Positions 749 to 23,692 of a stretch of 24,000 nucleotides of DNA are shown piece by piece. How positions within the stretch are numbered: position 1 is the stretch's first letter; every line of letters begins with the position of its first letter. Made by a program: the position numbers and the translations under genes. Below the pieces are notes generated by a model. That model saw nothing but the letters and a program-made list of their open reading frames with translations. It made no database searches and had not been told where the DNA came from. This stretch comes from Maledivibacter halophilus. GTDB taxonomy: Bacteria; Bacillota; Clostridia; Peptostreptococcales; Caminicellaceae. The stretch covers positions 567,839-591,838 of the forward strand of contig NZ_FUZT01000001.1 in the NCBI RefSeq assembly GCF_900167445.1, given 5' to 3'.

Positions 749-3700
749 ATGGCGAGTTCTCTAATTGAAGAATTATATAGGAAAATATCAGATAAACTTT
801 TAGCCCCTGACTTATTAAATGAAACTGCATTATCATCAGATTTTATTAAGGAATATATAAATTTAGATAGTTTTATAAATAAGATTGATGCAATAGTTGT
901 AAATAAAAATTATTCATGTAAAGCAGTTTTATCATTATGTAAAGATATAATGGAAAAGACAGTAAAAACTAAAGTTCCAGAGGATTGGCTTTTTTATATC
1001 TATCAGTATGCTCTAAATAAATCCTTTCCCGATGCGGTGACTATAAAACTTTATAAACACCTGGATAATGCTTGTATCATATATTTGGAGATTCTAAGGA
1101 TTGTATTAGAGATTCATAAGGTTTCCGATGACTATAGCTGGGAAAATAGTTATCCCCTTGATTTTTTAACTTTAGAAGAAGAAAATGAGCTTGAAAGTAT
1201 TGAAGAATATAGAACATTTAAAAGGGCCTTTCAAGATGAATATATATACGAAATGATGAAGCTAAATGAGGAGATTATGGGATACAGTTCCTTGCAGCAT
1301 ATATGTGGGGTACATTATCTGGCACTTTTCATAGGAAGACAATTGAAAAGTTCAGGTTTACCAATAGATTTGGGGCGAGTTTCCGGTTCTGCTGCAGGAC
1401 ATGATATAGGAAAGTTTGGCTGTAAGGAATCGGAATCAGAAAGAGTTCCATATCTTCATTATTATTACACCGGTGAATGGTTTAAAAAGCATAATATTGT
1501 ATATATAAGAAATATTGCTATTAATCATTCAACTTGGGATTTAGAGGTTGAAAATTTATCCTTGGAGAATCTAGTATTAATATATTGCGATTTTCGTGTT
1601 AAGAAAAAGGATGAAGAAATGCATATCTATAGTCTAGAAGAATCCTTTAACGTAATATTGGAAAAGTTAGATAATGTAGATAAAGCCAAGGAAGATAGAT
1701 ATTCAAGGGTATATGCAAAGCTTAAAGACTTCGAAGATTATATGCTTGATTTAGGTATAGATTTAGATGTTACTCCAGGAAAAAAGAATCCGGAAGAAAA
1801 AGTATTAAAGAAAAAGTATTACTCCTTAATGCAGGGAAAAGAGATAATTGAAAATATTAAATATCTTTCAGTAAATCATAACATAAATTTAATGTATAAG
1901 CTAAGGGATGAGTTTTCATTAAACTCCATAATAGAAATAGTAAGAAGTGAAGATGATTCAAATAATCTTAGGGGCTATTTAAATGGCTTTCAAGAGTATT
2001 CAACATATCTTACCCAAAAACAAAAACTAATTACCATAAGATTTTTATATGAACAATTAATTCATCCTGAAGACGATATTAGAATCCAGTGTGCAGAAAT
2101 TATAGGGTCACTGATTGCCACATTTGACGAAACATATAAGAAGGAAGTTCCGGATGATGTGAAGCTTGAAACAGCTGAATATGCTTCCTATGAACTGTTC
2201 CAGGACTATTTAGACCTGTTTTTATTTCCCAGCAGGCAGATTATACCAAAGCATCAAATGTGGATAGGGAAAAGTGCAAAGGTAATGGTTTTATCTCTTT
2301 TTTCAAACTCTCCTGATTATCAAATCAAGGATTTTATAAAAGTATTGTTGAGATATTATAAAAACAGTCAAGATAAAAGCAATGAATACAAGTTAAATAC
2401 CCTTAATATAGCAAAACATATTCCTATCCATCAGTGTGAAGAAAAAGAAATAGAAATATTAGTGGAATATATAAGAAATAATGTTTATGGAGAAAATAAT
2501 CTTTTAAGATTATTAGCCCTTGAAACAATATATAATTTAATACCTAAGTTTAATAGAGATTCCAATGTTTTAAAGCATATCAAAAAAGAGTTTTGTTTAA
2601 ATAGTGAATACTCACAATTTGCAGTTGAGAATTTTTTGAGATTAAAGATTGCCAATATTCTTGAGTTGGATAATGGTACAATTAGTAAATATAAAGAGTT
2701 TTGCAGATTAGATGAAGAAAAGATATCAAGTATGTTTTTAAGCAATCTTAAGACAGCAACCGATTGGGTAACAAAGAAATATCAGATAGAGCTTATAATG
2801 GAGAATACCTTGGATAATTTGGAGAATACGGGAATACATACGGCAATGCATTTTTGTAATCTTTTAAAGGTCAGTGCCAGTGAAAGTGTGAGAAATAGAG
2901 CAGGAGAAGCTTTAATAAAAATAGTTCCCAATTTGCCCTTTGATCAGAGAAATGATATTTTGGTTGAATTGTTAAGATCTTTAGAAATAGAAGGGCATCA
3001 ATTTACAAAATATATACCAAAATATCTTGGAAAACTTATACTTTACTTAGCTCCCATTGAATTAGATGAACTAATAACGGATTTTATTGAAAAAATAAGA
3101 CAATCCAGTACTGCGGTCATATCGCTTTTGCTGGAAACTATAGGTATAGTGATAGTAAACTATCCTAAGTATAGGGATTTTTGCACTGAATCTCAAAAAT
3201 TTTACAGAAATAGATTTAGTAAGATGCTGGGAATACTATTGAATGGACTTGTTAATAATAATCTTCAGGTTAGACAAGTGGCATTTAAGGTTATAGGGAT
3301 AGATGTTTTTGGATCAAAGGAGCTGAGCTTAGAAGAGAAGAAGAATATATTCAGACTTGCTGCAAAAAAGATTCTTACTCTTTTAGGAAATTCTGAAGAA
3401 TCTAAGGAATTATATTTTTTAACAAATTCAGCCGGATTGAATCATATCTATAGATTTATATCTGATTACAAATTTTATAATGGTCCTATTAAAATTCAAC
3501 AACCAAAAAAGATAGCGTTTTTTCCAGGAAGCTTTGACCCCTTTTCATTGAGTCATAAGGAGATTGCTAAGGAAATAAGAAATTTAGGCTTTGAAGTTTA
3601 TTTGGCTATTGATGAATTTTCATGGTCAAAGAGAATTCAACCTAATTTAATCAGAAGGAATATAATTAGAATGTCTATTGCAGATGAGTTAGGAATATAT

Positions 3701-9286: not shown

Positions 9287-9754
9287 ATGATGCTAGAATA
9301 TATATGGGTTGCGGTTTTTGCTTCTTTTCCAGAGGCTGCATTAGCACTTCTTATGGGATTCAATCTATCAAATGTAAGGGATATAAAATTGTGGAAGATT
9401 TTAATTGTTGCAGGAATTCAATCTGGAATTGCTTTGTTTGTAAGAATGACTAATGTATATTTCGGACTTCATTCAATAGTGCAAATTATAACATTATATT
9501 TACTTGTTATTATATTTTTTAAAATTAAATATTATAAAGCCATTATTCCAGTAGCTATAAGCTATATATCACAAGTGGCACTTCAAAATATTATAATACC
9601 GATAATTAGTATAGCTTTTAGAATAGATATAGCTAATTTATATTATAATTCTAAAAAATTAATTTTAGTTAGTATTCCGGTTTCTTTAATATACTTGATT
9701 TTCCTGATGATTATTATAAGAAAAAATCTATATCTATGTGATATTAATGATTAG
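9287..9754 (+). CDS. Polytopic membrane protein (155 aa, about 5 TM helices); appears to be the N-terminal sensor half of an AgrC-like kinase, ended by an in-frame TAG
   Basis: SD AGGGGGA lies before ATG 9287. The sequence is almost entirely hydrophobic helices. It is in the same reading frame as 9758..10639, separated only by TAG (9752-9754) and one codon. Confidence 0.6.
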   Translation: MMLEYIWVAVFASFPEAALALLMGFNLSNVRDIKLWKILIVAGIQSGIALFVRMTNVYFGLHSIVQIITLYLLVIIFFKIKYYKAIIPVAISYISQVALQNIIIPIISIAFRIDIANLYYNSKKLILVSIPVSLIYLIFLMIIIRKNLYLCDIND

Positions 9755-9757
9755 AAG

Positions 9758-10639
9758 GTGGTAGTTTTGAAGAACAAAAATAAATATATAATTATATTTA
9801 CCATGTTATTTCAAGCCATTATTATAAGTATACTTAATGGTATAATATGGAATTCTAATACTTTAAATATAATTGAAGAAAATATATTCTTTAATTATAT
9901 TCTTACAGTAATTATAGTAATAACAACCACTCTTATATTTATTTCCTTAAAAAAATTTAGCTATTATGAAAAAAAGGAAGCAGAATTCAAGTTAATAAAA
10001 GCCAATATGAAAAATACAGAAGAGTTAATAAATTTATTACATTCCCAAAGACTAGAATATTTAACCCATATTCAATCTATAGGGGCACTGGTATATTTAG
10101 AAGAATATGAAGAACTATCTAAGTATTTAAAAGGTATATCTAAGAATTATAGATTCAATGGTGGTATTATCAGTGCAGGACATCCAGCACTTACTGCATT
10201 GATTAATGCTAAAAGAGAAATAGCCCGTGAAAAAAATATATTTTTCTATACTAGAATCAAACAAAAACTGAATTGTATGAATATACCTTCTTGGGATTTA
10301 TGTATACTTTTTTCAAACCTTATTGAAAATGCAATAGAAGCAGCCTCAATGACGGAGGGAAAAAAGTGGATGAAGGTAGTGATTGATTATTATAATAATA
10401 ATTTTGTGTTTGAAATTGAAAATACAGGACAAATGGAAAATAATATTATGAAAAATTTATTTAAACAGGGAAATACCTCAAAGGCATCTTCGGGAAGGGG
10501 ATATGGACTATATATTTCTAAAAAAATTCTGGACAAGTACGATGGTTCTATAGATATCAAAAATACAGATATAGGTACAGTATTATGTACTGTAACATTA
10601 CCTAGGGAGGTAGGTAATTATAATGAAGAGGTTAGCTGA
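9758..10639 (+). CDS. AgrC-like / GHKL sensor histidine kinase half (2 TM helices, Spo0B-type dimerisation helix and ATPase domain)
   Basis: GAAGGTGG (9754-9761) straddles the upstream stop. Candidate starts are GTG 9758 or in-frame TTG 9767. H-box-like segment LLHSQRLEYLTHIQSIGAL; N-box FSNLIENAIEA; G2-like SGRGYGLYISKKI. The 3' end overlaps agrB by 17 nt. Confidence 0.75.
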   Translation: MVVLKNKNKYIIIFTMLFQAIIISILNGIIWNSNTLNIIEENIFFNYILTVIIVITTTLIFISLKKFSYYEKKEAEFKLIKANMKNTEELINLLHSQRLEYLTHIQSIGALVYLEEYEELSKYLKGISKNYRFNGGIISAGHPALTALINAKREIAREKNIFFYTRIKQKLNCMNIPSWDLCILFSNLIENAIEAASMTEGKKWMKVVIDYYNNNFVFEIENTGQMENNIMKNLFKQGNTSKASSGRGYGLYISKKILDKYDGSIDIKNTDIGTVLCTVTLPREVGNYNEEVS

Positions 10640-11231
10640 TAGTATTTCAAACTATATGGCAAAGGAATTGAAATATGATGATGAAAAGAGGGAGATACTT
10701 TCCTATGGTCTACAGGTTTTTTTAGGAGATTTAGCAAAAACTATAAGTATGTTGGTATTAGCATATTTTTTAAATATTTTTATTACTACTTTAGTTGTAA
10801 TGATATCATTTGTTTTTTTTAGAAGAATTATTGGAGGAACCCATGCTGATACTTATAATAAATGTTATTTTGTTAGTGTTCTTTTAATACTTTTATTAGG
10901 AAAAGTGGGAGAAATAGTTGATCTAAAATTTACACAGATTACGATATTAATTTTAATAGTTTATATATTAGCTGTGATAGCCACAATTTTATGGATTCCT
11001 GCAGGGACTGAAAAGAAAATGATAAAAAATAAAGCTACACGAAAAAAAATAAAAATTGAAACAATGATTTTATTAACATTTTGGGCTATATTAATTAGCT
11101 ATTTAAACAGCTTAGAGCTATTTAAATATGTAATATCAAGCTTATTAGGTGTTGCTCTAGCATTTTTCTTTACAACTCCATTAGGTTATAGATTTATGGA
11201 CTTTAAATTACTTAAGATAAATATTAACTAA
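10623..11231 (+). CDS. agrB: AgrB-family autoinducing-peptide processing and export protease
   Basis: 202-aa polytopic membrane protein. The motif RRIIGGTHADTYNKCYF has His and Cys spaced H-x6-C, the same spacing as the catalytic H77/C84 of S. aureus AgrB. It lies immediately upstream of an AgrD-like peptide gene. Confidence 0.85.
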   Translation: MKRLADSISNYMAKELKYDDEKREILSYGLQVFLGDLAKTISMLVLAYFLNIFITTLVVMISFVFFRRIIGGTHADTYNKCYFVSVLLILLLGKVGEIVDLKFTQITILILIVYILAVIATILWIPAGTEKKMIKNKATRKKIKIETMILLTFWAILISYLNSLELFKYVISSLLGVALAFFFTTPLGYRFMDFKLLKININ

Positions 11232-11247
11232 AGGGGGATAATCAAAT

Positions 11248-11388
11248 ATGTTTAAAAGCTTAAAAACTTTTTTATTATCATCAGCAGCTTGTTTACTTAC
11301 TTTAGTAGCTATGAGTGGCGTTAGTACTAGATGTTGGTATTGGACTTATGAACCAGATATTCCAGAAAGCTTAAAGAGGGATTTATAA
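11248..11388 (+). CDS. agrD: AgrD-type cyclic (thio)lactone autoinducer peptide precursor, 46 aa; not in the ORF track
   Basis: SD AAGGGGGA (11231-11238) lies 9 nt before ATG 11248; TAA at 11386-11388. Translation: MFKSLKTFLLSSAACLLTLVAMSGVSTRCWYWTYEPDIPESLKRDL. It has an amphipathic/hydrophobic leader, a single core Cys and a C-terminal acidic EP-x-x-P recognition tail, and sits directly after agrB. Confidence 0.8.
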   Translation: MFKSLKTFLLSSAACLLTLVAMSGVSTRCWYWTYEPDIPESLKRDL

Positions 11389-11406
11389 TTCAAGATTTAA
11401 CTTTTA

Positions 11407-11502
11407 ATGGATGTTTTAATATGTAGCGACGATCAGTATTTAGGAAAAATGCTAGAGAAAATAACACCTTTAGTAAATAAGGTAAAAAATAGTTTACCGT
11501 AG
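11407..11502 (+). pseudogene. Probable remnant of a response-regulator receiver-domain N-terminus (31 codons)
   Basis: Translates as MDVLICSDDQYLGKMLEKITPLVNKVKNSLP*. The xxVLICxDD start resembles strand beta-1 and the acidic pair of AgrA/LytTR-type regulators. It ends at TAG and is in a different frame from the LytTR ORF. The position matches where agrA would start. Confidence 0.4.
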
Positions 11503-11525
11503 ATAAGTTTCATCTTTATCACAGT

Positions 11526-11577
11526 ATATATGGAGTACGCAATAAATTCTTATTACGTATTTCCATATATTTTTTTG
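11526..11577 (+). terminator. AT-rich hairpin plus T-run between the receiver remnant and the LytTR gene (candidate agrBD terminator)
   Basis: ATATATGGA (11526-11534) pairs with TCCATATAT (11562-11570), with further partial pairing GTACG/CGTAT. A T7 run follows at 11571-11577. Confidence 0.45.
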
Positions 11578-11618
11578 AAGCCCGTTAATATTTAGGACTT
11601 TAAAAGGAGGCAGGGATT

Positions 11619-11993
11619 ATGAAAGCTATTCAAAATGAAATATTAAATGAGAATGATAATAATTTAGATAAACTAGCTATTAAAGAAGAAGGACATATAA
11701 ATTTTGTAATGGTAAAGGACATATTATATTTTGAAAAAAGTCATAGAAAGGTTTTAGCCCATACAGCTAAAAATACATACACTTTGAACAGCACTTTAAA
11801 GGAGCTAGAAGAAAATTTAGACGATAAATTTACTAAAACCCATAGATCCTTCATAGTTAATAAGAAGAAAATCAAAAAGATAAAAGAAGTAGGTGACCGG
11901 ACATACGAAATTCAATTTTTTGATACTGATAAGAAGGCTAGTTTAAGCAGAAAAAAATATGAGGAACTAATGAAAGGCTTGTCTATTTTTTAG
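11619..11993 (+). CDS. Stand-alone LytTR DNA-binding domain protein (124 aa; AgrA-like C-terminal domain without a receiver)
   Basis: Strong SD AAAGGAGG (11602-11609) before ATG 11619. An in-frame TAA at 11601 prevents extension upstream. LytTR-type sequence: INFVMVKDILYFEKSHRKVLAHT...THRSFIVNKKKIKKIKE. Confidence 0.8.
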   Translation: MKAIQNEILNENDNNLDKLAIKEEGHINFVMVKDILYFEKSHRKVLAHTAKNTYTLNSTLKELEENLDDKFTKTHRSFIVNKKKIKKIKEVGDRTYEIQFFDTDKKASLSRKKYEELMKGLSIF

Positions 11994-12067
11994 AGAAATA
12001 ATAGATATGAGATGATTGTACAAAAGAGATTGTGTTCTACATCTTTATTTAGTAATATATTTGTAAA
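11969..12067 (+). repeat. Direct-repeat copy 1, covering the 3' end of the LytTR gene and its downstream region
   Basis: 11969-12007 matches 13457-13495 with 4 mismatches in 39 nt. About 12013-12067 matches about 13721-13776 at roughly four-fifths identity by eye. Confidence 0.8.
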
Positions 12068-12332: not shown

Positions 12333-13424
12333 ATGCTGATTCAATGTACAAAGAAACTAATGGATATTCTTAAAACTAAGACAACTTTGATTAAAGATGA
12401 AAAACCACTCTTTTCATGGCATGCAAACCTGATAAGTATTAATCGTAGAAATACCGTAGTCCTTGTCAATGATAGCAATCGTTATACAATTATTTTGTAT
12501 GGACTAAAGTCCAAAGACTTTAAAAAGCTTGATGAAATTGCAATCAATGCTATTCGTGAGACTTTACTGGCGGAAGGGATAAAAGCTGAAATTGTAGAAG
12601 AATTTATAAATGCTTCGCCTAAAGTTAGCTATGCCAAAACAAAAAATAGATCAATGGTTGCAAGGATGAATAAATCTTGTGATAATGTATATTCTTCTGG
12701 AGAAATATTGGATGCAAATTCCATAAATCAAAGCAATGTTAGTATGGTAGTAAGTGCTCTGCTTGTGGGTAATGGGAAAAATGAGTACATATATCCCAAT
12801 GAAAATATGTACAAGGATTTGGAAAACTTTGTATCTTCATCTATCTTTAGCTGTAGGGCCCTAGAGCTAAAAATATTACTTAATCTTTTAAATCACAAGG
12901 TTTGGAGAAGTATCATTGTGCCAGATTATATTACATTTAAGCAGTTTCATCATATACTTCAAATTGTATTTGATTGGAAGGATTATCATCTTCATGATTT
13001 TTATGTATTTGATGGTGACAAGCCTGTTGTTAATTTAGTTTGTAGTAATGATGCTTTTGAATATCCAAATGAAGTACCTATGCTGCAAGAAAGCAATATT
13101 AAACTATCAGAATATCTTCCTAAATACTCAAGGATAAAATACAACTATGATTTTGGCGACAACTGGGAGCACTATATTACTGTAGAAAAAACAATTGAAA
13201 ACTATATGAAAAATTATCCTATATGCATAGACGGTAAAGGAAATGCACCACCAGAGGATGTAGGTGGAGAGTTAGGGTATGATGAATTTTTAGAAGCAAT
13301 ATCTGATCCTAAGCATCCTGAGCATCATGATATGGTAAATTGGTCTAAAATGCAGGGGTATAGAAATTTTGATTTTGAATTGGTTAATAGAAGACTTAAA
13401 GTATCATTAAAGAGATTGAGCTAG
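12333..13424 (+). CDS. pRiA4b ORF-3-like (MM3350-like) domain protein with an N-terminal domain of unknown function
   Basis: C-terminal half carries the family hallmarks LELKILLNLLNHKVWRSIIVP, YNYDFGDNWEH and CIDGKGNAPPEDVGG. SD GAGGGAGGG upstream; TAG stop. Confidence 0.8.
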   Translation: MLIQCTKKLMDILKTKTTLIKDEKPLFSWHANLISINRRNTVVLVNDSNRYTIILYGLKSKDFKKLDEIAINAIRETLLAEGIKAEIVEEFINASPKVSYAKTKNRSMVARMNKSCDNVYSSGEILDANSINQSNVSMVVSALLVGNGKNEYIYPNENMYKDLENFVSSSIFSCRALELKILLNLLNHKVWRSIIVPDYITFKQFHHILQIVFDWKDYHLHDFYVFDGDKPVVNLVCSNDAFEYPNEVPMLQESNIKLSEYLPKYSRIKYNYDFGDNWEHYITVEKTIENYMKNYPICIDGKGNAPPEDVGGELGYDEFLEAISDPKHPEHHDMVNWSKMQGYRNFDFELVNRRLKVSLKRLS

Positions 13425-13456
13425 AGAATATTGTAAAAATTTTTATATGAAGAATC

Positions 13457-13495
13457 AATGAAAGACTTATCTATTCTTCAGAGAAATAATAGATA
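13457..13495 (+). repeat. Direct-repeat copy 2, part A (a duplicated LytTR-gene 3' end with no gene attached)
   Basis: AATGAAAGACTTATCTATTCTTCAGAGAAATAATAGATA aligns with AATGAAAGGCTTGTCTATTTTTTAGAGAAATAATAGATA at 11969-12007. Confidence 0.8.
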
Positions 13496-13677: not shown

Positions 13678-13728
13678 TCAAATATGCCTCAAAAACGGTC
13701 AGTTATAGATGAAATATGGACAGTTGTG
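13678..13728 (+). promoter_or_regulatory. Candidate LytTR (AgrA-type) binding site: three 9-mers at a 21-bp period
   Basis: TCAAATATG (13678-13686), TCAGTTATA (13699-13707) and ACAGTTGTG (13720-13728), each separated by exactly 12 nt. The last two fit the LytTR consensus [TA][AC][CA]GTTN[AG][TG] at 7 and 8 of 9 positions. The site lies directly upstream of a promoter. Confidence 0.5.
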
Positions 13729-13776
13729 CAAAAGGGGTTGTGTTTTACATCTATGTTTAGTAATATATTTACAAAG
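13721..13776 (+). repeat. Direct-repeat copy 2, part B
   Basis: Matches about 12013-12067. It is separated from part A by about 225 bp that are absent from copy 1. Confidence 0.7.
13738..13766 (+). promoter_or_regulatory. Candidate sigma-A-type promoter of the 13857 gene
   Basis: -35 TTGTGT (13738-13743), 17-nt spacer, -10 TAATAT (13761-13766). It abuts the LytTR-type boxes and sits about 90 nt upstream of the ATG. Confidence 0.4.
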
Positions 13777-13856: not shown

Positions 13857-14792
13857 ATGAAAAGGTCAATTAAAGTATTAACTGTTGCATTAAGTCTTAT
13901 TATTCTATTTGCATTTCAACCTGTATATGCTTACAATTTAGATAGAAGTGTTGTACAAGATAATATGTATAAATTCTATAAAGTAGATGGAATAGATTTA
14001 AAAGCGAAAAAAATAGTTATAAATTTTGAGGAGGCAATTGATAATCTGAATAGTAAAATATGTAAGTATGAAGAAAATATAAGCGAAACTAACGATACTT
14101 ATAATATCCTTATTGAAAAAGCATATGAAGTAAGTAAAGAAATAGGAATATATAATGCTTTTAAAGATGAAGTTATAAGAAGACAAAAAGAAGGTTTGAA
14201 AATTAATAAAATTACTATTTATGAGACTGAGCCTAAAGAAATTTCTGAATATACGTCAAGTGATGATTTCACATATAGGGGTTATAATATGAAAGAAGTT
14301 TTTATGGAAATTGATTATGTAGGGTTACCAGATGCAAGATATAAAGGAAAAGCAATAGAAACAGTAATAAATAAAGCTTTTACAATAGGACTTGGATATG
14401 GTCCTCCATTAGTATGGGTTCCTGCAACAATATTAGGTGTAGGTAGTCCAATAAGTCCACATACAGATGATATTTTAGTGGTAATGCCTGAATCAACTAT
14501 TACTAGTAGATATATTCTTGTTGAAGATTCAGATCATATTTATAGTAATTTAGATAATAAATATTATACTTTTTCTGGAGCACAACGTGGTTGGTATGAG
14601 ATTGACATTTCTTATCAAAGGGCAGGAAGATCGGATATAAATGAATCTCAGGAATTTACGAGAGTAACTGACCATTATTGGGACAGAAACTATTTAATAG
14701 AAGAAGCATATGATAGTTACATTAACTACTATACAGATCCATATTATGAAACTTTAGATGTTATTTATTATGATTATCCAGATGAAGACTAA
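13857..14792 (+). CDS. Secreted protein of unknown function (311 aa)
   Basis: SD AAGGAGG before the ATG. Signal peptide MKRSIKVLTVALSLIILFAFQPVYA. Tyr/Asp-rich C-terminus. Palindromic terminator downstream. No family recognised. Confidence 0.7.
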   Translation: MKRSIKVLTVALSLIILFAFQPVYAYNLDRSVVQDNMYKFYKVDGIDLKAKKIVINFEEAIDNLNSKICKYEENISETNDTYNILIEKAYEVSKEIGIYNAFKDEVIRRQKEGLKINKITIYETEPKEISEYTSSDDFTYRGYNMKEVFMEIDYVGLPDARYKGKAIETVINKAFTIGLGYGPPLVWVPATILGVGSPISPHTDDILVVMPESTITSRYILVEDSDHIYSNLDNKYYTFSGAQRGWYEIDISYQRAGRSDINESQEFTRVTDHYWDRNYLIEEAYDSYINYYTDPYYETLDVIYYDYPDED

Positions 14793-15573: not shown

Positions 15574-15601
15574 CAAAAAAAGAATGACAAGGGACGGTTC
15601 T

Positions 15602-15630
15602 TTGTCATTGTTTTGTTGTTATGGTATAAA
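15602..15630 (+). promoter_or_regulatory. Near-consensus promoter embedded in the element's left end
   Basis: -35 TTGTCA (15602-15607, part of the terminal hairpin), 17-nt spacer, TG at 15622-15623, -10 TATAAA (15625-15630). The same arrangement is conserved in all three mini copies. Confidence 0.6.
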
Positions 15631-15657
15631 TAAGGTTTAGATGAAGGTGTGAAGCAA

Positions 15658-16461
15658 ATGGTAAGAAAAAGAAGGGAATTAAGTAGTACAGGAATATATC
15701 ATATAATGATAAGAGGAAATGAAAAAAGAAATATATTTCTTGACGATGATGATAGAGAAAAATTTATTAACATACTATTTGATAAGAAAAAAGATAATGA
15801 ATATAAGCTTTATGCATATTGTTTGATGAACAATCATGTTCATTTACTATTAAAAGAGGAAAAAGAGGATATATCTAGAAATATGAAAAGAATAAATATA
15901 AGCTATGCATATTATTTCAACAAAAAATATGAAAGAGTAGGACATGTATTCCAAGATAGATTCAAGAGTGAAACAGTAGAGGATGATATATACTTATTGC
16001 AAGTAATAAGATATATACACAATAATCCAGTAAAAGCTGGAATAGTAAAAAGCCCTTTAAAATATAAATGGAGTAGTTATAGTTCATATACTTCAAAGGG
16101 TTATAATAAAAATAGTATAGTAGATAATAATTTTATATTGCTGATGTTCTCAAAAAATAAAAGAGAAGCAGTAAAACTATTTATAGAATATTCATTACAA
16201 GAAAACGAAGATGTTTTTATTGATGAAAGAAAAAAAGAAAAGAAGAAAAAAATTATATTGACTGAAAAAGCAGCAAGAGATTTTATAGATAAGTTTTTAA
16301 ACAAAAATAATTTAAAATTAGATGAAATAAGAAATAAGGAAAATAAAAAGTTAAGAAATGAGTTAATTTTAGAGTTGAGAAAAAAATCAAATTTGTCAAT
16401 TAGAAATATTTCTAGTTTATTAAAAATCAGTAGGGGCGTTGTGCAAAATGTGAAAACATGA
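15658..16461 (+). CDS. IS200-like / REP-associated (RayT-like) Y1 tyrosine transposase with a C-terminal HTH-like region (267 aa)
   Basis: ATG 15658 is preferred over the track's GTG 15649 because of SD GAAGGTG 7 nt upstream. Motifs: TGIYHIMIRGNEKRNIF, HUH motif NNHVHLLL, QDRFKS and the catalytic-Tyr context VIRYIHNNPVKAG. Confidence 0.85.
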   Translation: MVRKRRELSSTGIYHIMIRGNEKRNIFLDDDDREKFINILFDKKKDNEYKLYAYCLMNNHVHLLLKEEKEDISRNMKRINISYAYYFNKKYERVGHVFQDRFKSETVEDDIYLLQVIRYIHNNPVKAGIVKSPLKYKWSSYSSYTSKGYNKNSIVDNNFILLMFSKNKREAVKLFIEYSLQENEDVFIDERKKEKKKKIILTEKAARDFIDKFLNKNNLKLDEIRNKENKKLRNELILELRKKSNLSIRNISSLLKISRGVVQNVKT

Positions 16462-16498
16462 CAAGGAACCGTCCCCTGTCACGCGAAGGAGTGTATAC

Positions 16499-17644
16499 AT
16501 GAATAATAAGAATTTAGCAGGTTTTTTATGGAACTTTGTTCTTTTCCTGGGCTTTTTTAGCTTTGTGAGTAGTTTTATATCTCCTATTAAATTTATCAGC
16601 AATACTATAAGTGGAGTTTTTATTATTACTTTATTTTTTATACCCTATCTTAAAAGACCTAATATATGGACTAAGATTATAATGTTAGTTGGTTTTACAT
16701 ATATATTAAGTCTTTTTTTAGATAGAATTTATCCAATAAACTCTTTTATAATAGTTATATTTAAATTAATTTCTATAGTTTTAGCTTTAGGTATCTTTTT
16801 TACAAATTTATTTTTTCCAAGGGTTTTTAATTGTGAAGAAAAGATTAAAGATAGTAAGGATAATGAATTTATTTTACCTCCTAAGCCCTACAGAAAACAT
16901 CCCATTAGAAGCAATATAATATATTTTTTAACACAGTATATATTGATTTTTATAAATCCTATTCAGTTATATCAGAATATATTTGCTTTAATTGGTTCCT
17001 TAATAGCCGAATTAAGAAAAATCAAAACAAATTTTTCTCCTAAGGATTTTAATAGTAGTGTAGAATATCATCTCCCTTTTTCTGGAGAATGGATAGTTGT
17101 AAGTGGAGGTATAAACCAAGAAGATTCTCATTCATGGAATGTTATAAATCAAAGGTATGCCTATGATTTTGTAAAAATTGATTCTAATAAATCCACCCAT
17201 ACAAGAAGCGGAAAAAATTTAAATGATTATTATTGTTACGGTAAGCCTGTGCTAGCACCAGCAGAAGGAAGGGTAGTTGCTGTAAAAGGAAATGTTTGTA
17301 ATGCTAAAAATCCTGGAACCATGTGGATCGATTTTTTAGCAAGGGATTTTCGTGGAAACTATGTTATTATAAAACATGCTGAAAAAGAATATTCCTTTAT
17401 GGGTCATTTTATTCCAGGTAGTATTATGGTTAAAAAAGGGGAATTTGTAGGAAAGCATCAAGTAATAGGTCAATGCGGAAATTCTGGATATTCAACAGAG
17501 CCCCACCTTCATTTCCATTTACAGGATCATCCCAATTTTTATCTAGCAATAGGATTACCGATAAAGTTTAAAAACTTAAAAATAGAAGGTGAAAAATTTA
17601 AAGAAGCTTATATAAAAAGGGGAGAGAAGGTAGAGATTGAATGA
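16499..17644 (+). CDS. Membrane-anchored M23 (LytM-type) metallopeptidase
   Basis: SD AAGGAG (16486-16491) lies immediately after the element's right end. N-terminal multi-TM region. M23 motifs SHSW...AYDF and GNSGYSTEPHLHFHL. The stop TGA (17642-17644) is the first three bases of mini-element 1. Confidence 0.85.
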   Translation: MNNKNLAGFLWNFVLFLGFFSFVSSFISPIKFISNTISGVFIITLFFIPYLKRPNIWTKIIMLVGFTYILSLFLDRIYPINSFIIVIFKLISIVLALGIFFTNLFFPRVFNCEEKIKDSKDNEFILPPKPYRKHPIRSNIIYFLTQYILIFINPIQLYQNIFALIGSLIAELRKIKTNFSPKDFNSSVEYHLPFSGEWIVVSGGINQEDSHSWNVINQRYAYDFVKIDSNKSTHTRSGKNLNDYYCYGKPVLAPAEGRVVAVKGNVCNAKNPGTMWIDFLARDFRGNYVIIKHAEKEYSFMGHFIPGSIMVKKGEFVGKHQVIGQCGNSGYSTEPHLHFHLQDHPNFYLAIGLPIKFKNLKIEGEKFKEAYIKRGEKVEIE

Positions 17645-17913
17645 CAAAGGACGGTTCTTTGTCATTCTTTTGCTATTATGGTATAAATAAGGTTTAGATA
17701 AAGGTGTGAAGCAAAGGGTAAGAAAAAGAAGGGAATTAAGTAATACAGGAATATATCATATAATGATAAGAGGAAATGAAAATAAGAAAAAAATCATATT
17801 GACTGAAAAAGCAGCAAGAGGTTTTATAGATAGGTTTTTAAACAAAAATAATTTAAAATTAGTAGGGGAGTTGTGCAAAATATGAAAACATGACAAAGAA
17901 TCGTCCCCCGTCC
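17642..17913 (+). mobile_element. Non-autonomous deletion derivative (MITE-like) of the Y1 element, copy 1
   Basis: Left end TGACAAAGGACGGTTCTTTGTCA (17642-17664). Degenerate right end TGACAAAGAATCGTCCCCCGTCC (17891-17913). The interior equals the full copy minus about 15730-16245 and about 16321-16429. The transposase ATG is mutated to AGG. Confidence 0.85.
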
Positions 17914-17941
17914 CCTAATATTAAGGAAAGGAGCAAATAAA

Positions 17942-18616
17942 ATGAAAAAATCATTATTTGCGACATTAATTCTATGTATGATTTTCATCTCAATGATCGG
18001 AGGAAGTGCTTTTGCTGATAACGATACAAAATTAGTGTTAGATATGGGAATACTGCAAATTGAAACAAATTATGATGTCCATAACACAATTGTTTCATAC
18101 GAAGAATCGTGTAATAAAGTTGTTGCTATTATTAGAGATAGGGAGACTTTTAAAATTATTGATAAATATGAGCAACTTGTAATTGAAGATCCTTTAACAC
18201 AGGAAATTAATATTTTAAGAAGTGGATACTTAACAGTTCCCTTAAGAAGAGAATATAATCCTACTTCTAGTAATACAACTACTATTACTGCCTTGATAGA
18301 AACTAAACTATATAAAGAGACAATACTTGGACAGGTAGTTTACACATTGATTGATGTTAATGATTATGATCATTATTTGTCAGGAAGTAAACCTTTTGAA
18401 TTAGAAAATAAATATACTAGTATACAAAAGCAAACATCATCATATTGTGATCTTAACATAACTGGTACTATGAAAGCCACAAAACAACAGGCTACATCAG
18501 CAGGACTTTCATTTGAATTCTTGGACGGTTTAGGGTTTGGTATGTCAGGTGAGTCAACTAGCCCGTGGCATGCAAGATTAGCATATAATGGTTCTGTGAG
18601 AATAACTGTTGATTAA
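17942..18616 (+). CDS. Secreted protein of unknown function (224 aa)
   Basis: SD AAAGGAG before the ATG. Signal peptide MKKSLFATLILCMIFISMIGGSAFA. No family recognised. Confidence 0.7.
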   Translation: MKKSLFATLILCMIFISMIGGSAFADNDTKLVLDMGILQIETNYDVHNTIVSYEESCNKVVAIIRDRETFKIIDKYEQLVIEDPLTQEINILRSGYLTVPLRREYNPTSSNTTTITALIETKLYKETILGQVVYTLIDVNDYDHYLSGSKPFELENKYTSIQKQTSSYCDLNITGTMKATKQQATSAGLSFEFLDGLGFGMSGESTSPWHARLAYNGSVRITVD

Positions 18617-18628
18617 ATTTAATTTATA

Positions 18629-18899
18629 TGACAAGGGACGGTTCTTTGTCATTCTTTTGTTGTTATGGTATAAATAAGGTTTAGATAAAGGTGTGAAGCA
18701 AAGGGTAAGAAAAGGAAGGGAATTAAGTAGTACAGGAATATATCATATAATGATAAGAAGAAATGGAAAAAGAAAAAAATTATATTGACTGAAAAAGCAG
18801 CAAGAGATTTTATAGATAGGTTTTTAAACAAAAATAATTTGAAATTAGTAGGGGCGTTGTGCAAAATGTGAAAATATGACAAAAAACCGTCCCCTATCA
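18629..18899 (+). mobile_element. Non-autonomous deletion derivative of the Y1 element, copy 2
   Basis: Left end TGACAAGGGACGGTTCTTTGTCA (18629-18651). Right end TGACAAAAAACCGTCCCCTATCA (18877-18899). It has the same two deletion junctions as copy 1, and the ATG is mutated to AGG. A TATCACG tandem duplication lies at 18895-18908. Confidence 0.85.
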
Positions 18900-18938
18900 C
18901 GTATCACGTAGAAGCCTTTCTTTGATTTATTTTGTCCC

Positions 18939-18971
18939 ATCTTAATAGAATCTTAAGAAAATCTTCAAGTT
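18939..18971 (+). promoter_or_regulatory. Three tandem 11-bp units upstream of ddl (candidate OmpR-family response-regulator site)
   Basis: ATCTTAATAGA (18939-18949), ATCTTAAGAAA (18950-18960) and ATCTTCAAGTT (18961-18971). TATAAT hexamers lie at 19002-19007 and 19013-19018, neither with a good -35. Confidence 0.35.
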
Positions 18972-19048
18972 TTCCATAAGGATTTTAGGATTTTAAACCT
19001 CTATAATAAAACTATAATCAATTAACTAATGAAGGAGGAAAAGGAAAT

Positions 19049-20131
19049 ATGAAAGTTGATGTTTATGTACTTTATGGAGGAAAATCTGTGGAGCATGAGG
19101 TATCTTTACTAACTGCTTTATCTATTATTAATGCTTTAAATAAAGAGAAGTACAATGTATATCCTATTTACATTACAAAGAATGGGATTTGGTATAATAA
19201 AGGACTTGTAAGGGAGACAATAAAGGATGTAGGGGAGTTAAAGAATTTTTCTACAAAATCTATTTTAAAATCTATAGCTGAAGATTTTTTGAAGAAAATA
19301 AAAGCTAATACCAGAACTGTTATTTTTCCTGCTTTACATGGAACAAATGGTGAAGATGGAACAATTCAAGGGCTTTTAGAGCTTTTGGATGTGCCTTATG
19401 TAGGCAATGGAATTATGGCATCGGCAGTAGGTTTTGATAAAGCCATGACGAAGGAATTATTTTCAAAGGCTAATGTGCCCCAAGCTCAATATGAAATTTT
19501 AGATTATCAAGAATGGATAAAAAGTGAAAAAGACAGCTATGTAAGATTAGAGGAGGCAATTGGTTATCCCTGCTTTGTAAAGCCCGCAAGATTAGGGTCA
19601 AGTGTAGGTATTAATCGCTGTGGAAACATAGAAGAATTAAAAGAAGCAATTAATGAAGCCTTTTTTTATGATATCAAGCTAGTTATTGAAAAAGAAATCA
19701 TTGGGAGAGAGATGCAAATATCAGTTATTGGCAATGAAAGCCCTAAAAGCTCTGTAATAGGAGAGTTTATACAGGAAAAACCCTTTATGGATTACTCAGC
19801 TAAGTACCTTGATGGAAAGCTTATTCCTGTTATACCAGCAAGGCTGTCAGATGAAATTACTTCTAAAATGCAGGAAACAGCTCTTAAAATCTTTAAACTT
19901 TTAAATTGTAATGGTTTGGCAAGAGTAGATTATTTCGTAAGCCATAATGATAAGTTTTTTGTTAATGAAATTAACACCATGCCAGGATTTACAAAGGCTA
20001 GTATGACACCTGTTCTATGGGAGAAAACAGATGGAACCTCCTATCAACAGCTTATAGAGAAGCTCATAGAATATGCCTTCGAACGCCATGAGAAAAAAGG
20101 AACATTGCTATATGATAGGAGGATAATATGA
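19049..20131 (+). CDS. ddl: D-alanine--D-alanine ligase
   Basis: SD GAAGGAGG. Motifs GGKSVEHEVSL, KPARLGSSVGI and NEINTMPGFT. The omega-loop reads DYSAKY, with the Tyr of the D-Ala-D-Ala type retained. Confidence 0.92.
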   Translation: MKVDVYVLYGGKSVEHEVSLLTALSIINALNKEKYNVYPIYITKNGIWYNKGLVRETIKDVGELKNFSTKSILKSIAEDFLKKIKANTRTVIFPALHGTNGEDGTIQGLLELLDVPYVGNGIMASAVGFDKAMTKELFSKANVPQAQYEILDYQEWIKSEKDSYVRLEEAIGYPCFVKPARLGSSVGINRCGNIEELKEAINEAFFYDIKLVIEKEIIGREMQISVIGNESPKSSVIGEFIQEKPFMDYSAKYLDGKLIPVIPARLSDEITSKMQETALKIFKLLNCNGLARVDYFVSHNDKFFVNEINTMPGFTKASMTPVLWEKTDGTSYQQLIEKLIEYAFERHEKKGTLLYDRRII

Positions 20132-21522
20132 TTAAACGAAAATTAAAAGATATTGAGAGAATGGTTAAGGGTAATGGATTAGATGAAAAAGGAGAAAGTT
20201 TCTGGATAGAAGGGGTTTCAATAGATACAAGAAGTATTAAAACCAATCAGCTCTATATCCCCATAAAGGGGGAGAGATTTAATGGCCATGATTTTATTGA
20301 AGAAGCGATAAAAAAGGGAGCTGCAGCTGCTCTATGGAGTAAAGATGAACCAACTAAAACAAAAGACTTTCCATTAATTTTTGTAGATGATACATTATTA
20401 GCTATTCAAGAATTGGCGAGGCAATATCGAAAGGAATTGCCTGTAAAGGTAATTGGCATTACAGGAAGTAATGGAAAAACTTCAACTAAGGACATTTTAG
20501 CTAGTATTTTAAAGACAAAATATAAAACCCATAAGACCCTTGGAAATTTAAACAATCATTTAGGAGTGCCTCTAACATTATTACAAATGAAAGAGGATGC
20601 GGAGGTAGCAGTAATAGAGATGGGTATGTCAGCCTTAGGGGAAATAGAAACCTTATCTAATATTGCCTTACCCGATATTGGAGTTATAACCAATTCAACC
20701 AATGTACATATCAATACTCTGGGTTCTGTAGAGAATATCCTTAAGGCTAAGCTAGAAATAGTATCAGGATTAAAGGAGGATGGGCTATTGGTATACTTAG
20801 GGGATAGCTTACCCTTGCATAAGGGTGTAGAAGGTCTTAATCTGACACAGAGAAAAGAAACCTTTGGAACTAAGCTAAATAATGATTATGCTGTAGAATT
20901 TACATCACTTAATAAAAAAGGAATCTGCTTTGAATTAAAAAAGCCTGTTTGTAGAAATTTTTTCTTGTCCATGTTTGGTAAAAACCAGGTTTATAATGGA
21001 GCTGCTGCTATTGCAGTGGCTAGATACCTTAATGTCCCCTATAACTTAATTGAGAAGGGATTGTCTATGGTAGATAGTACAGGAATGAGAAATGAGCTGA
21101 TTCATAGTGCCGGATTTGATATTTTAAATGATGTCTACAAGTCAAATCCTATAAGCTTAAGAGCTGCATTAGAAACCATATATTCCTTCAAGGGATATAA
21201 TAAAAAGATCGTTGTCCTTGGAGATATGATAGGGACTGGGGAAAATGAAGTGGGGATACATGAAAAGATAGGTGAAGATATTAGATCAGATGAAATAGAT
21301 TATGTTTTTACAATAGGAAAATTAGCTGAGCATATTGCTGTAAAAGCTAAAATTAGGCTTGGAGATAATAAAGTTTTTTCATTTAATAAGAAGAAGGACT
21401 TATTAAAAAACTTAAAGGAAGTGATAAATAAAGATACTATTATATTGGTAAAGGGCTCTAGAGGACTGCATTTAGAAGAGGTTGTGGATAACTTAAAGGA
21501 CTTTACACCTATAATATCTTAA
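20128..21522 (+). CDS. murF: UDP-N-acetylmuramoyl-tripeptide--D-alanyl-D-alanine ligase
   Basis: ATGA overlap with the ddl stop; SD AGGAGG. Mur-ligase P-loop GITGSNGKTSTKD. Length and order (ddl-murF) are as in many Firmicutes. Confidence 0.9.
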   Translation: MIKRKLKDIERMVKGNGLDEKGESFWIEGVSIDTRSIKTNQLYIPIKGERFNGHDFIEEAIKKGAAAALWSKDEPTKTKDFPLIFVDDTLLAIQELARQYRKELPVKVIGITGSNGKTSTKDILASILKTKYKTHKTLGNLNNHLGVPLTLLQMKEDAEVAVIEMGMSALGEIETLSNIALPDIGVITNSTNVHINTLGSVENILKAKLEIVSGLKEDGLLVYLGDSLPLHKGVEGLNLTQRKETFGTKLNNDYAVEFTSLNKKGICFELKKPVCRNFFLSMFGKNQVYNGAAAIAVARYLNVPYNLIEKGLSMVDSTGMRNELIHSAGFDILNDVYKSNPISLRAALETIYSFKGYNKKIVVLGDMIGTGENEVGIHEKIGEDIRSDEIDYVFTIGKLAEHIAVKAKIRLGDNKVFSFNKKKDLLKNLKEVINKDTIILVKGSRGLHLEEVVDNLKDFTPIIS

Positions 21523-21620
21523 TAGTATAGGTGACAGATAAGCCTTTTACTTATACCTAAAATAGTATAAAATAATGAAGATAAATAATAAAAAATTATT
21601 GGAAAGGGTATATGTAAAAA

Positions 21621-22328
21621 ATGGTGGAAAGAAATAAAATATTAATTATAGATGATGAAAAGGAAATTGCAGATTTAGTGGGAATTTACTTGATGAATGA
21701 AGGTTATAGTGTATTAAAAGCCTATACTGGCAAAGAAGCATTGGAAACTTTAGAAAAGGAGGCTATTGATTTAGCGATTCTTGACATTATGATGCCAGGG
21801 ATTGACGGTCTTGAAGTATGTAGAAGGATACGTAAAGATAAGAATATACCTATTTTGATGTTAAGTGCTAAGTCGGAAGATATAGACAAAATTCTTGGCT
21901 TGACAACAGGAGCCGATGACTATTTAACAAAGCCCTTTAACCCCTTAGAATTAATTGCAAGGGTTAAATCTCAGCTAAGGAGATATTTATATTTAAATCC
22001 TAAAAATTCTAGGGAAACCTATGAAAAGGATGAAATTGTTTGTAAAGGTTTAACTATAAATAAAGCTATACATACCGTAACACTATTTGATAATATTGTA
22101 AACCTGACACCTATCGAGTTTGATATCCTACTATTACTGGCTAGTAATCCTGGAAAGGTATATACAGTTGATGAAATATTTCATATAGTATGGAAGGAAG
22201 ACTATTTAGAGTCAGATAATACGGTTAGAGTACATATTAGGAAAATTCGAGAAAAGATAGAAAGTGACTCCAAAAACCCTTTATTCATTAAAACGATATG
22301 GGGGGTAGGCTATAAATTTGAAGATTAA
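21621..22328 (+). CDS. OmpR-family response regulator, VanR-like
   Basis: Receiver ILIIDDEKEIADL...DLAILDIMMPGIDG...GADDYLTKPF. Winged-helix C-terminus TVRVHIRKIREKI...IKTIWGVGYKF. By eye it closely resembles VanR-type regulators. Confidence 0.88.
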   Translation: MVERNKILIIDDEKEIADLVGIYLMNEGYSVLKAYTGKEALETLEKEAIDLAILDIMMPGIDGLEVCRRIRKDKNIPILMLSAKSEDIDKILGLTTGADDYLTKPFNPLELIARVKSQLRRYLYLNPKNSRETYEKDEIVCKGLTINKAIHTVTLFDNIVNLTPIEFDILLLLASNPGKVYTVDEIFHIVWKEDYLESDNTVRVHIRKIREKIESDSKNPLFIKTIWGVGYKFED

Positions 22329-23424
22329 AATGATAAAGAGTATAAGATGGAAAATCCTATTTGTTTTTATTATAAGTATTTTAGCAGCTTCAATTACAGT
22401 AGTTGGATTGATATTATTTGCTTTGGCTTTGGGTAGGAATTTTAAACTCTTTTATGATATTCTTAAATTACTATATGATACAATAGGGGTTTTACCTTTA
22501 GGAGTATTGGCAGGAATTTTATTTTTTATTATTTACTTCTTTCTATTAAGTCAAAAAACTATTCGTTATTTAGAGGAAATTACTCAAAGCTTAGACTTAA
22601 TAGCAAAGGGGAATTTTGATGTTGAAATTCCCATCAAGTCAAATAATGAATTAGGAGTATTAGCAGCAAATATTAACCTTATGGCTAGTCAAATAAAGAA
22701 GTCTATTGAAGAAGAAAGAAATGCGGAGAAAAAGAAAAATGAATTGGTTACAGGTGTATCCCACGATTTACGCACCCCTTTAACCTCTATTTTAGGCTAT
22801 TTAGGGTTAATTGTTAATGACCAATATAAAGACGAGATTGTACTTCGATATTATATTGATATTGCCCATACTAAGGCATTGCATTTAAAGGGCTTGATTG
22901 ACCAACTTTTTGAGTATACCCGTGTAAGCTACGGAGGAATGAAGGTTGAAATGAAGAAGGTGAATCTAGTAGAGCTTATGGAGCAGTTAATTGAGGACTT
23001 TGCTCCTTCAATGCAAGAAAAAAATATGAAGTGTCAATTACAGGTTTCTAATGAAAGCATTTTTGTTTGGATAGATCCCAATCTAATGGTTAGAGTATTT
23101 GAAAATCTAATTTCAAATGCTATCCGCTATGGCCACAAGGGCAAAGCTATAGATATAGAAATAGATGAGGAAAAAGATACTGTAGTCAAAGTAATTAATT
23201 ATGGAGAGCTAATAGAGTCCCAGGAATTACCCTATTTGTTTGAAAGGTTTTATAGAGTAGAAAAATCCCGTTCTAAAGAATCCGGTGGGACAGGATTGGG
23301 GTTGGCTATTGCAAAAAATATAGTAGATTTACATAACGGAGAAATCAAAGCTTATAGTAGTTTAGAGCGTACAGTTTTTGAAGTAAGGTTAAGGAGAAAT
23401 AAAAGAAAGTTACTAGTAGTATGA
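22318..23424 (+). CDS. Sensor histidine kinase (2 TM, HAMP, HisKA, HATPase), VanS-like
   Basis: TTG 22318 follows a G-rich SD (22300-22309); ATG 22330 is an alternative start. H-box VSHDLRTPLTSILGYLGL, N-box FENLISNAIRYG, G-box GGTGLGLAIAKNIV. Confidence 0.88.
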   Translation: MKIKMIKSIRWKILFVFIISILAASITVVGLILFALALGRNFKLFYDILKLLYDTIGVLPLGVLAGILFFIIYFFLLSQKTIRYLEEITQSLDLIAKGNFDVEIPIKSNNELGVLAANINLMASQIKKSIEEERNAEKKKNELVTGVSHDLRTPLTSILGYLGLIVNDQYKDEIVLRYYIDIAHTKALHLKGLIDQLFEYTRVSYGGMKVEMKKVNLVELMEQLIEDFAPSMQEKNMKCQLQVSNESIFVWIDPNLMVRVFENLISNAIRYGHKGKAIDIEIDEEKDTVVKVINYGELIESQELPYLFERFYRVEKSRSKESGGTGLGLAIAKNIVDLHNGEIKAYSSLERTVFEVRLRRNKRKLLVV

Positions 23425-23431
23425 TTACATA

Positions 23432-23692
23432 TGACAAGGGACGGTTCTTTGTCATTGTTTTGTTGTTATGGTATAAATAAGGTTTAGATGAAGGTGTGAA
23501 GCAAATGGTAAGAAAAAGAAGGGAATTAAGTAGTACAGGAATATATCATATAATGATAAGAAGAAATGAAAAAAAGAAAAAAATCATATTGACTGAAAAA
23601 GCAGCAAGAGATTTTATAGATAGGTAATAATTTAAAATTAGCAGCGGCGTTGTGCAAAATGTGAAAACATGACAAAGAACCGTCCCCTGTCA
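23432..23692 (+). mobile_element. Non-autonomous deletion derivative of the Y1 element, copy 3
   Basis: Left end TGACAAGGGACGGTTCTTTGTCA (23432-23454). Right end TGACAAAGAACCGTCCCCTGTCA (23670-23692). It has the same two junctions as copies 1 and 2, plus an extra deletion of about 11-12 bp. The ATG is retained. Confidence 0.85.

Follow-up and report, generated by a model that had tools for sequence, protein, structure and literature searches.

RAYT proteins, the tyrosine transposases associated with repetitive extragenic palindromic (REP) sequences, have been described together with REPs, bacterial interspersed mosaic elements (BIMEs) and REPINs, which are REP doublets, in organisms such as E. 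coli (TnpA_REP, PDB ID: 4er8) and Pseudomonas fluorescens. RAYT-like genes flanked by terminal inverted repeats (TIRs) have been named TIRYTs or "TIRtrons" (Di Nocera et al. 2013, PMC3733652); some of their TIR families are dispersed as dimers, some TIRs are self-complementary, and a TIR motif, GGGGWSAS, has been published. Most TIRYTs correspond to TnpAY1 subclass 2.1 (Quentin et al. 2018, PMC6006769), characterized by NHVH, FQ and Y[IV]HxNP motifs, an SS tail motif, a C-terminal helix-turn-helix (HTH) and a length above 230 aa, and for which no REP-like sequences were reported. The same proteins make up RAYT group 1 (Bertels et al. 2017, PMC5581495), which occurs in Clostridia and comprises the RAYTs that most resemble insertion sequences (IS); that study also argued for the domestication of RAYTs. 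It has been left open whether the hairpin ends of an IS200-like ancestor gave rise to REPs and REPINs (PMC3337134). Here we analyze a 24,000-nt stretch of Maledivibacter halophilus contig NZ_FUZT01000001.1 (positions 567,839 to 591,838; hereafter, the window), which contains an 897-bp element with a rayT-like gene and three shorter units derived from it (minis), with all copies and hairpins of this species counted inside the window.

We propose, with a probability of roughly 0.75, that the 897-bp unit represents a mobile, single-gene member of the RAYT branch and that the minis are non-autonomous derivatives, comparable to REPINs and to miniature inverted-repeat transposable elements (MITEs), that stem from a single deleted copy. 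A repeat search and global alignments agreed on one full copy and three minis sharing three blocks, as a preliminary description of this DNA had proposed (coordinates in Table 1). The four copies are co-oriented, the left 210 nt and the right 83 nt recur at 15584, 17641, 18628 and 23431, and the three minis lie within 8 kb downstream of the full element. Similarity halts at the terminal hairpins, the flanks beyond them are unrelated among all four copies, the genes separating the copies differ from one another, and no direct repeats indicative of a target-site duplication flank any of the four. The final base of the left flank is A in 4/4 copies, and CG lies directly outside the right end in three of them. 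This CG pairs with the inner TG and may for that reason form part of the hairpin foot, which is more likely than its being a target motif; counted in this manner, the full element would possibly end at 16483. The flanks of related elements yielded no target-motif consensus.

The full element harbors no ORF besides the rayT-like gene, whose intact product matches Pfam Y1_Tnp (PF01797) with an E-value of 1.5e-18, bearing out the intact HUH/Tyr transposase of the preliminary description. The HUH motif consists of H60 and H62 within NHVH, and the predicted catalytic tyrosine is Tyr119 within YIHNNP; the HUH, the tyrosine and the Y1_Tnp fold place the protein in the Y1 HUH superfamily. Furthermore, the motifs NNHVH, VFQDRF, YIHNNP and KWSSY can be read along its sequence, and N59, H60, H62, Y119, N123, P124, W138 and S140 are invariant in 39 homologues. 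The label "IS200/RayT-like" given to it beforehand held for RayT (84.1 bits against NCBIfam REP_Tyr_transpos NF047646, with a cutoff of 80) and failed for IS200 (19 bits against model NF033573, with a cutoff of 55). In a sequence search of the PDB the sole match was E. coli TnpA_REP (4er8), and in this alignment the HUH and YxxxNP motifs coincide. The AlphaFold (AF2) model, with a pLDDT of 86.9, likewise retrieved 4er8 as its best Foldseek match (E 4e-8, TM 0.74 on target), ahead of the TnpA structures of ISDra2, IS608 and IS200, with 4er8, 2xma and 2a6m all matched at probability 1.00.

Given the YIHNNP motif, the NF047646 score above cutoff and 4er8 as best match in both sequence and fold, the protein is a RAYT (class 2 TnpAY1) and not an IS200 TnpA. 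IS200 TnpA proteins, in contrast, have a Y...Q motif and about 150 aa and are often accompanied by tnpB, whereas the window element has a Y...NP motif and lacks tnpB; with its Y motif ending in NP, its greater length and no second ORF, it falls outside IS200/IS605 subclass 1.1. Compared by description with the motifs in Table 1 of PMC6006769, rather than with the authors' hidden Markov models, the protein fits TnpAY1 subclass 2.1 (Bertels group 1; TIRYT/"TIRtron"), and within it probably subclass 2.1.2. The C-terminal third is helical in the model and shows weak matches to HTH_19, HTH_23, HTH_24 and HTH_7, and a Pfam search with the C-terminal half alone returned HTH_19 below threshold and nothing else. 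A 100% identical NCBI protein was located on one 912-kb contig only, and the next homologue, among 6090 matches at E<=1e-10, is about 57-58% identical.

Each end of the element forms a hairpin with a 12-bp stem, a 3-nt loop and fixed G:T wobbles. The 23-nt terminal motif TGACARRGGACGGTTCYTTGTCA (<=3 mismatches) is confined to the eight element ends in the window, with none expected in shuffles. The two ends of the full copy match as reverse complements at 21/23 positions, each is an imperfect palindrome, and the TIRs span 29 nt at 86-90% identity; the earlier reading of the termini as mutual reverse complements and hairpins is thereby upheld, save for the weakened right hairpins of minis 1 and 2 (Table 1), for which no DNA fold is predicted. 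The left end is fully paired on the + strand and the right end on the - strand, in both cases via G:T wobbles, and since the G:T-paired form is found on opposite strands at left and right, the two ends are true inverted copies.

Exact copies of the 23-mer occur at 64 loci when one genome per species is scanned, none of them in Maledivibacter, whose genome was either missing from the scanned set or masked; the hosts include Clostridia, Syntrophomonadaceae, Desulfofundulus, Thermotalea and Atribacterota and range in GC content from 25% to 62%. To assess covariation we assembled 115 distinct instances sharing the 10-nt core GGGACGGTTC, a set chosen through that core and in which only the outer stem constitutes an unbiased test. 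The stem covaries at four positions, each beyond every shuffle (e.g. AT 82 / TA 15; TA 94 / AT 10), and pairing does not extend past 12 bp. One stem position is G:T in 115/115 instances, and at two more this pair predominates. On the opposite strand these pairs would become A.C mismatches; the form under conservation is therefore, as judged from these alignments, a single-stranded fold of either DNA or RNA. The hairpin foot reads (G)TGACA, and AATGACA in the window, with no GTAG or GTGG, and GGGGACGG comes closest to the published TIR motif GGGGWSAS (7/8). The arrangement of a gene flanked by inverted palindromic repeats is found both in the window and at loci L002, L009, L014, L027, L042, L046, L056, L067 and L069. 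A literature search by hairpin sequence returned unrelated primer matches only.

In global alignments all minis keep the same three blocks of the full element (15585 to ~15720-15726, ~16237-16243 to 16319, and 16429-16481), at 89-100% identity per block. Junction 1 falls within an A-rich run, which leaves its position uncertain by a few nt, and junction 2 at AAAATTAG/AAAATCAG; both lie in short repeats, and the preliminary reading of identical junctions at short A-rich microhomologies in the three minis is upheld. The additional loss ascribed to the third mini amounts to 11 bp (16295-16305). The identities to the full copy in Table 1 were computed against that copy trimmed to the same blocks; minis 1 and 2 are 93.0% identical, and the copies have diverged by 2.3-7% from each other. 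Substitutions at two sites set all minis apart from the full copy, three are common to minis 1 and 2, and mini 1 has 11 changes of its own, mini 2 has 6 and mini 3 has 2. Both junctions and these substitutions being common, the flanks unrelated, the ends precise and target duplications absent, the data support the descent of the minis from one doubly deleted ancestor, inserted separately at least twice, in line with the single deleted ancestor postulated earlier; the common junctions also suggest that the mini replicated as a unit.

The inner spacer of the minis is a gene remnant of ~215-225 bp between inverted hairpins, and RayT is single-copy. Like MITEs, the minis are short (261-272 bp), bounded by TIRs and non-coding, their frames being broken, but the target-site duplication of MITEs is absent from 4/4 copies. 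Rfam held no family matching the minis, and no match was found among viral contigs. A protein search with a concatenated peptide from both strands of the mini matched only RayT itself; gene callers skip mini ORFs, and this search is therefore uninformative on copy number. A metagenome search with the family-specific 20-mer GGTATAAATAAGGTTTAGAT matched one contig, which was rejected as a chance match to promoter-like sequence.

The minis can also be followed in an assembly made independently from short reads. Its Logan contig from SRR891936 (L001, 4650 bp) corresponds to window positions ~18816-23460, covers the segment ddl-murF-response regulator-histidine kinase and has its termini inside minis 2 and 3. 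Since the contig terminates within these two minis, the repeat is long and similar enough to break short-read assemblies.

The left end of the element combines several sequence signals. A putative -35 box, TTGTCA (15602-15607), lies in the 3' arm of the left hairpin and is followed by a 17-nt spacer ending in TGG and a -10 box, TATAAA (15625-15630). The layout recurs in relatives (TTGACA-17-TACAAT, TTGACT-18-TATAAT, TTGACT-17-TAAAAT), with spacers ending in TGn, and the sole non-coding feature that is conserved is the left ~50 bp, comprising hairpin and promoter. The left hairpin precedes a T-rich run; folded as RNA it reaches -14.9 kcal/mol in the full copy and -10 to -15 across the left ends, and a terminator scan rated all four left ends as terminator-like. 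The right end shows no fold on the + strand, and the first 3 nt of the right hairpin are the TGA stop codon of rayT, which also lies in the outer stem of the right hairpin at L002, L067 and L069. A comparable terminator-like hairpin at the left end of IS200 blocks incoming transcription. By its sequence, the left hairpin and U-run would, as RNA, terminate transcription entering from upstream, and the hairpin 3' arm would serve as the -35 of an inward-reading promoter, so that a co-oriented insertion would terminate and then restart transcription and would be polarity-neutral between genes.

Such neutrality would explain the position of the copies just after stop codons. The preliminary description had placed all copies 0-12 nt after a + strand stop; the distances are 11 nt for the full copy, 12 nt for mini 2 and 7 nt for mini 3, whereas mini 1 overlaps the stop, its first 3 nt being the TGA (17642-17644) of an M23-peptidase ORF (16499-17644). 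As this stop is provided by the mini itself, the insertion probably replaced the last few codons of the peptidase gene. At mini 2, a TATCACG TATCACG tandem duplication (18895-18908) straddles the right end and may be a slippage product or a footprint of end processing. All called genes of at least 100 aa in the window lie on the + strand except ORF 70-474, and the GC skew is +0.22. IS608 and ISDra2 show a bias for the lagging-strand template, and by analogy the uniform orientation of the copies would be compatible with such a bias.

Elements of the same kind occur in other genomes: RayT homologues with 41-69% identity to the window protein lie there between convergent hairpins, each pair spanning ~920-955 bp end to end. 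One metagenome-assembled genome (MAG) carries at least six full copies, 96-99% identical and with sharp hairpin boundaries, which is IS-like behavior. Among other hairpin pairs, 18 span 50-121 bp and 4 span 281-709 bp, measured from end to end. Profile searches recovered RayT remnants at L048 (aa 1-46 + 239-266), L007 (aa 1-44 + 175-266) and L029 (aa 90-116 + 204-266), and the remnant derivatives found elsewhere have junctions other than those of the window minis. Dispersed hairpins were seen in several MAGs and in Thermotalea metallivorans, where a single RayT is accompanied by solitary 25-38-bp hairpins on three further contigs.

The closest parallel is Methylomusa anaerophila (L069:8895-10830), where a full RayT element with a GAGTCA stem variant is accompanied by two minis <=1.1 kb upstream. 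Both share one in-frame junction, aa18|aa235, fusing aa 1-18 to aa 235-265; the second is cut short at its contact with the left hairpin of the full copy, and the TGA stop codon of the upstream gene lies inside the left hairpin of the first. A master copy with adjacent minis of one junction has thus arisen independently in Methylomusa. The parts of the gene that are kept vary among relatives, some of which keep none, and hence none of the internal blocks is indispensable. The suggestion that the retained internal blocks may be required is therefore not supported: the derivatives of relatives keep other parts, hairpin-only doublets of 50-120 bp exist, and the window minis are frame-broken.

Some hairpin occurrences stand apart. 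In the MFD01112 MAG, partial extra left hairpins lie directly outside the left ends of full elements (L014:3666-3710, and L042, upstream of the second copy), which suggests insertion beside pre-existing hairpins or abortive events. Exact hairpins at L004, L032, L048 and L059 come from MAGs labelled Methanoperedens, archaeon, Saccharibacteria and Peribacteria, and may reflect binning contamination or horizontal transfer beyond Bacillota. A Lachnospiraceae MAG (L055:3665-3807) carries about five hairpin units at 30-bp spacing in mixed orientation, forming a BIME-like array.

Origins of the minis other than one deleted ancestor inserted repeatedly have to be weighed against these data. Three full-length insertions might each have been shortened by slippage that recurred at identical A-rich microhomologies; the short repeats that contain both junctions could favor such slippage, and derivatives do arise repeatedly in the family. 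Yet two different junctions are identical in 3/3 minis, two substitutions unite all minis against the full copy and three unite minis 1 and 2, and derivatives in other genomes have other junctions, so we regard independent deletion as very unlikely. We attach equally slight odds to local segmental duplication, recombination or gene conversion in place of transposase-mediated insertion, since homology halts exactly at the hairpins, the flanks are unrelated, the intervening genes differ, and dispersed copies in other genomes show the same sharp boundaries, even though four copies lie in 8 kb in one orientation and the demonstrated copies all come from the window. That the minis instead encode a small truncated RayT peptide, made up of the N-terminus and part of the C-terminal domain and regulating transposition, seems scarcely credible. 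Minis 1 and 3 keep the frame across junction 1, a 59-aa ORF is present in mini 1, and the Methylomusa minis are in-frame fusions, but the 109-bp loss at junction 2 shifts the frame, minis 1 and 2 no longer have the ATG, the ORFs of minis 2 and 3 are broken, and the protein database holds no such peptide. Because of the frameshift, the lost start codons and the broken ORFs, the minis are non-coding, and coding potential was rejected.

An alternative of a different kind concerns what the hairpins are for. In a domesticated RAYT/REP system, they would act mainly as host regulatory modules (terminators, mRNA stabilizers, portable promoters) maintained by the single-copy RayT, which would not behave as a selfish transposon; domestication has been argued for RAYTs (PMC5581495). 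The exact RayT is found on one contig only, with the next homologue 58% identical, all copies sit just past co-oriented stop codons, the left hairpin with its U-run scores as a terminator, and the promoter with its -35 inside the hairpin is kept across relatives, all of which would suit this view. However, a relative has at least six near-identical, IS-like full copies, group 1 comprises the most IS-like RAYTs (PMC5581495), and minis 1 and 2 show decay of their right hairpins, as would be unexpected under purifying selection; we consider domestication unlikely.

Under the preferred reading of a mobile RAYT-branch element with non-autonomous minis, deletions at short A-rich microhomologies, first of 516 bp and later of 109 bp, would have shortened one copy that kept both hairpins, and the resulting ~270-bp derivative would have inserted into nearby intergenic sites on at least two further occasions, giving rise to the three minis. 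By analogy with E. coli TnpA_REP, IS608 and ISDra2, from which we infer the catalytic steps, the single-strand mechanism, the strand choice, mobilization in trans, local hopping and the replication-strand bias, RayT would bind the hairpins as folded single-stranded DNA. Cleavage would take place near the hairpin foot via the HUH-bound metal and Tyr119, and the ends would be rejoined into single-stranded target DNA at the replication fork, leaving no target duplication. Units retaining both hairpins would be movable in trans, and reinsertion would often take place nearby.

Several observations weigh against this proposal, whose support consists of sequence and model data. The weakened right hairpins of minis 1 and 2, together with the 2-7% divergence of the copies, make current activity doubtful, and the notion of an actively propagated family put forward in the preliminary description is not sustained. 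The M. halophilus tally of eight hairpins comes entirely from the window. The canonical REP guide tetranucleotide GT[AG]G is absent from the hairpin foot, and a simple promoter scan did not call the rayT promoter, in which position 6 of the -10 box is a non-consensus A. Furthermore, both ends of IS608 fold on one strand whereas the G:T-paired hairpins of the window element lie on opposite strands, so that the strand choreography may differ.

Set beside the described systems, the locus resembles RAYT/TnpA_REP systems in the Y1 HUH, the Y...NP motif and the best match to 4er8, and REP/REPIN systems in a gene flanked by inverted hairpins, two-hairpin non-autonomous units, an intergenic location after genes and a single-copy transposase gene. 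The REP/BIME-like relationship proposed at the outset is in keeping with the RayT-like protein and the inverted hairpins flanking its gene. It departs from these systems in several respects: E. coli TnpA_REP has ~165 aa, compared with 267 aa and a C-terminal HTH here; REPs carry the foot tetranucleotide that the window hairpins lack; REPINs measure ~100 bp and bear no trace of a gene, whereas the minis measure ~270 bp and contain gene remnants; REPs reach high genome-wide copy numbers, while the M. halophilus copies were counted in the window; and the host is a Clostridia-class Firmicute rather than a Proteobacterium.

Agreement with TIRYTs, subclass 2.1 and group 1 extends to motifs, SS tail, C-terminal HTH, length above 230 aa, the TIR-flanked gene and occurrence in Clostridia. 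In contrast with subclass 2.1 as published, the ends of the window family are a covarying, strand-asymmetric hairpin that also exists as solitary and doublet copies. The IS200/IS605 family (IS200, IS608, ISDra2) shares the Y1 HUH fold (2xma, 2a6m, 2f4f), hairpin ends and the lack of target duplication. Classical MITEs (RUP, NEMIS/Correia, ERIC, Nezha) are alike in size (70-300 bp), TIRs, lack of coding capacity, origin by internal deletion, intergenic sites and possible effects on neighboring genes, but they depend on a DDE transposase and generate target-site duplications, whereas the window minis have HUH-type hairpin ends and no duplication.

Taken alone, the window provides a clear instance of an already known type of element. 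Apparently undescribed in the literature consulted are the hairpin itself, its covariation, its strand asymmetry and its overlap with promoter and stop codon, as well as the deletion-derived minis with gene remnants and the series leading from full element to minis, doublets and solitary hairpins. Within one family, this series spans autonomous elements of ~900-950 bp, remnant-bearing units of ~270-370 bp, doublets of 50-120 bp and solitary hairpins, and it is plausible that these sizes reflect a progression from transposon to REP-like repeat. A broader generalization, that group-1 RAYTs run a REP/REPIN-type system across Bacillota and neighboring phyla with one deeply conserved 12-bp hairpin of fixed G:T strand asymmetry that also contains the -35, a terminator-like structure and, at the right end, the transposase stop codon, and that the minis are transitional forms and mobile terminator-promoter cassettes, is offered tentatively, as we hold it to be possible but on balance doubtful. 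If true, the window and the Methylomusa minis would show REPIN-like doublets being born by internal deletion of an autonomous element followed by local hops. The observed series bears on the question of REP and REPIN origin (PMC3337134), and the family contradicts the reported lack of REP-like structures in subclass 2.1 (PMC6006769). Biochemistry would gain a defined hairpin substrate, and for annotation the ~270-bp units matter because they break short-read assemblies and may add terminators and promoters between genes.

Table 1. Coordinates of the RAYT-branch element, its minis and an agr-like locus in the window.
Feature	Position	Strand	Remarks
Full-length element	15585..16481	+	897 bp; left hairpin, promoter, rayT-like gene, right hairpin
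Left terminal hairpin	15585..15607	+	TGACAAGGGACGGTTCTTTGTCA; fully paired with G:T wobbles
Putative rayT promoter	15602..15630	+	sequence reading
rayT-like gene	15658..16461	+	267 aa; alternative GTG start at 15649
Right terminal hairpin	16459..16481	-	- strand reads TGACAGGGGACGGTTCCTTGTCA, the G:T-paired form; + strand with A.C mismatches
Mini 1	17642..17913	+	272 bp; 93.8% identity to matching parts of full copy; right hairpin with 3 mismatches
Mini 2	18629..18899	+	271 bp; 95.6% identity; 1-nt deletion at junction 1; right hairpin with 2 mismatches
Mini 3	23432..23692	+	261 bp; 97.7% identity; extra 11-bp deletion; both hairpins exact motif matches
GHKL/SpoOB-type histidine kinase	9758-10639		agr-like locus
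AgrB	10623-11231		Pfam 1.5e-38
LytTR DNA-binding protein	11619-11993		agr-like locus

Elsewhere in the window, the 1629-aa ORF 749-5638 has as its sole Pfam match a weak cytidylyltransferase-like domain (aa 924-1088), and an agr-like quorum-sensing locus occupies 9287-11993 (Table 1). Two conserved non-coding blocks of ~51 and ~52 nt, 85-86% identical between copies, are present at 11957-12067 and again at 13445-13495 + 13724-13775, upstream of ORFs 12333-13424 (DUF6933/PRiA4_ORF3) and 13857-14792, respectively. The blocks adjoin each other in the first copy and are separated by 228 bp in the second, and they may be duplicated LytTR-regulated promoter regions.

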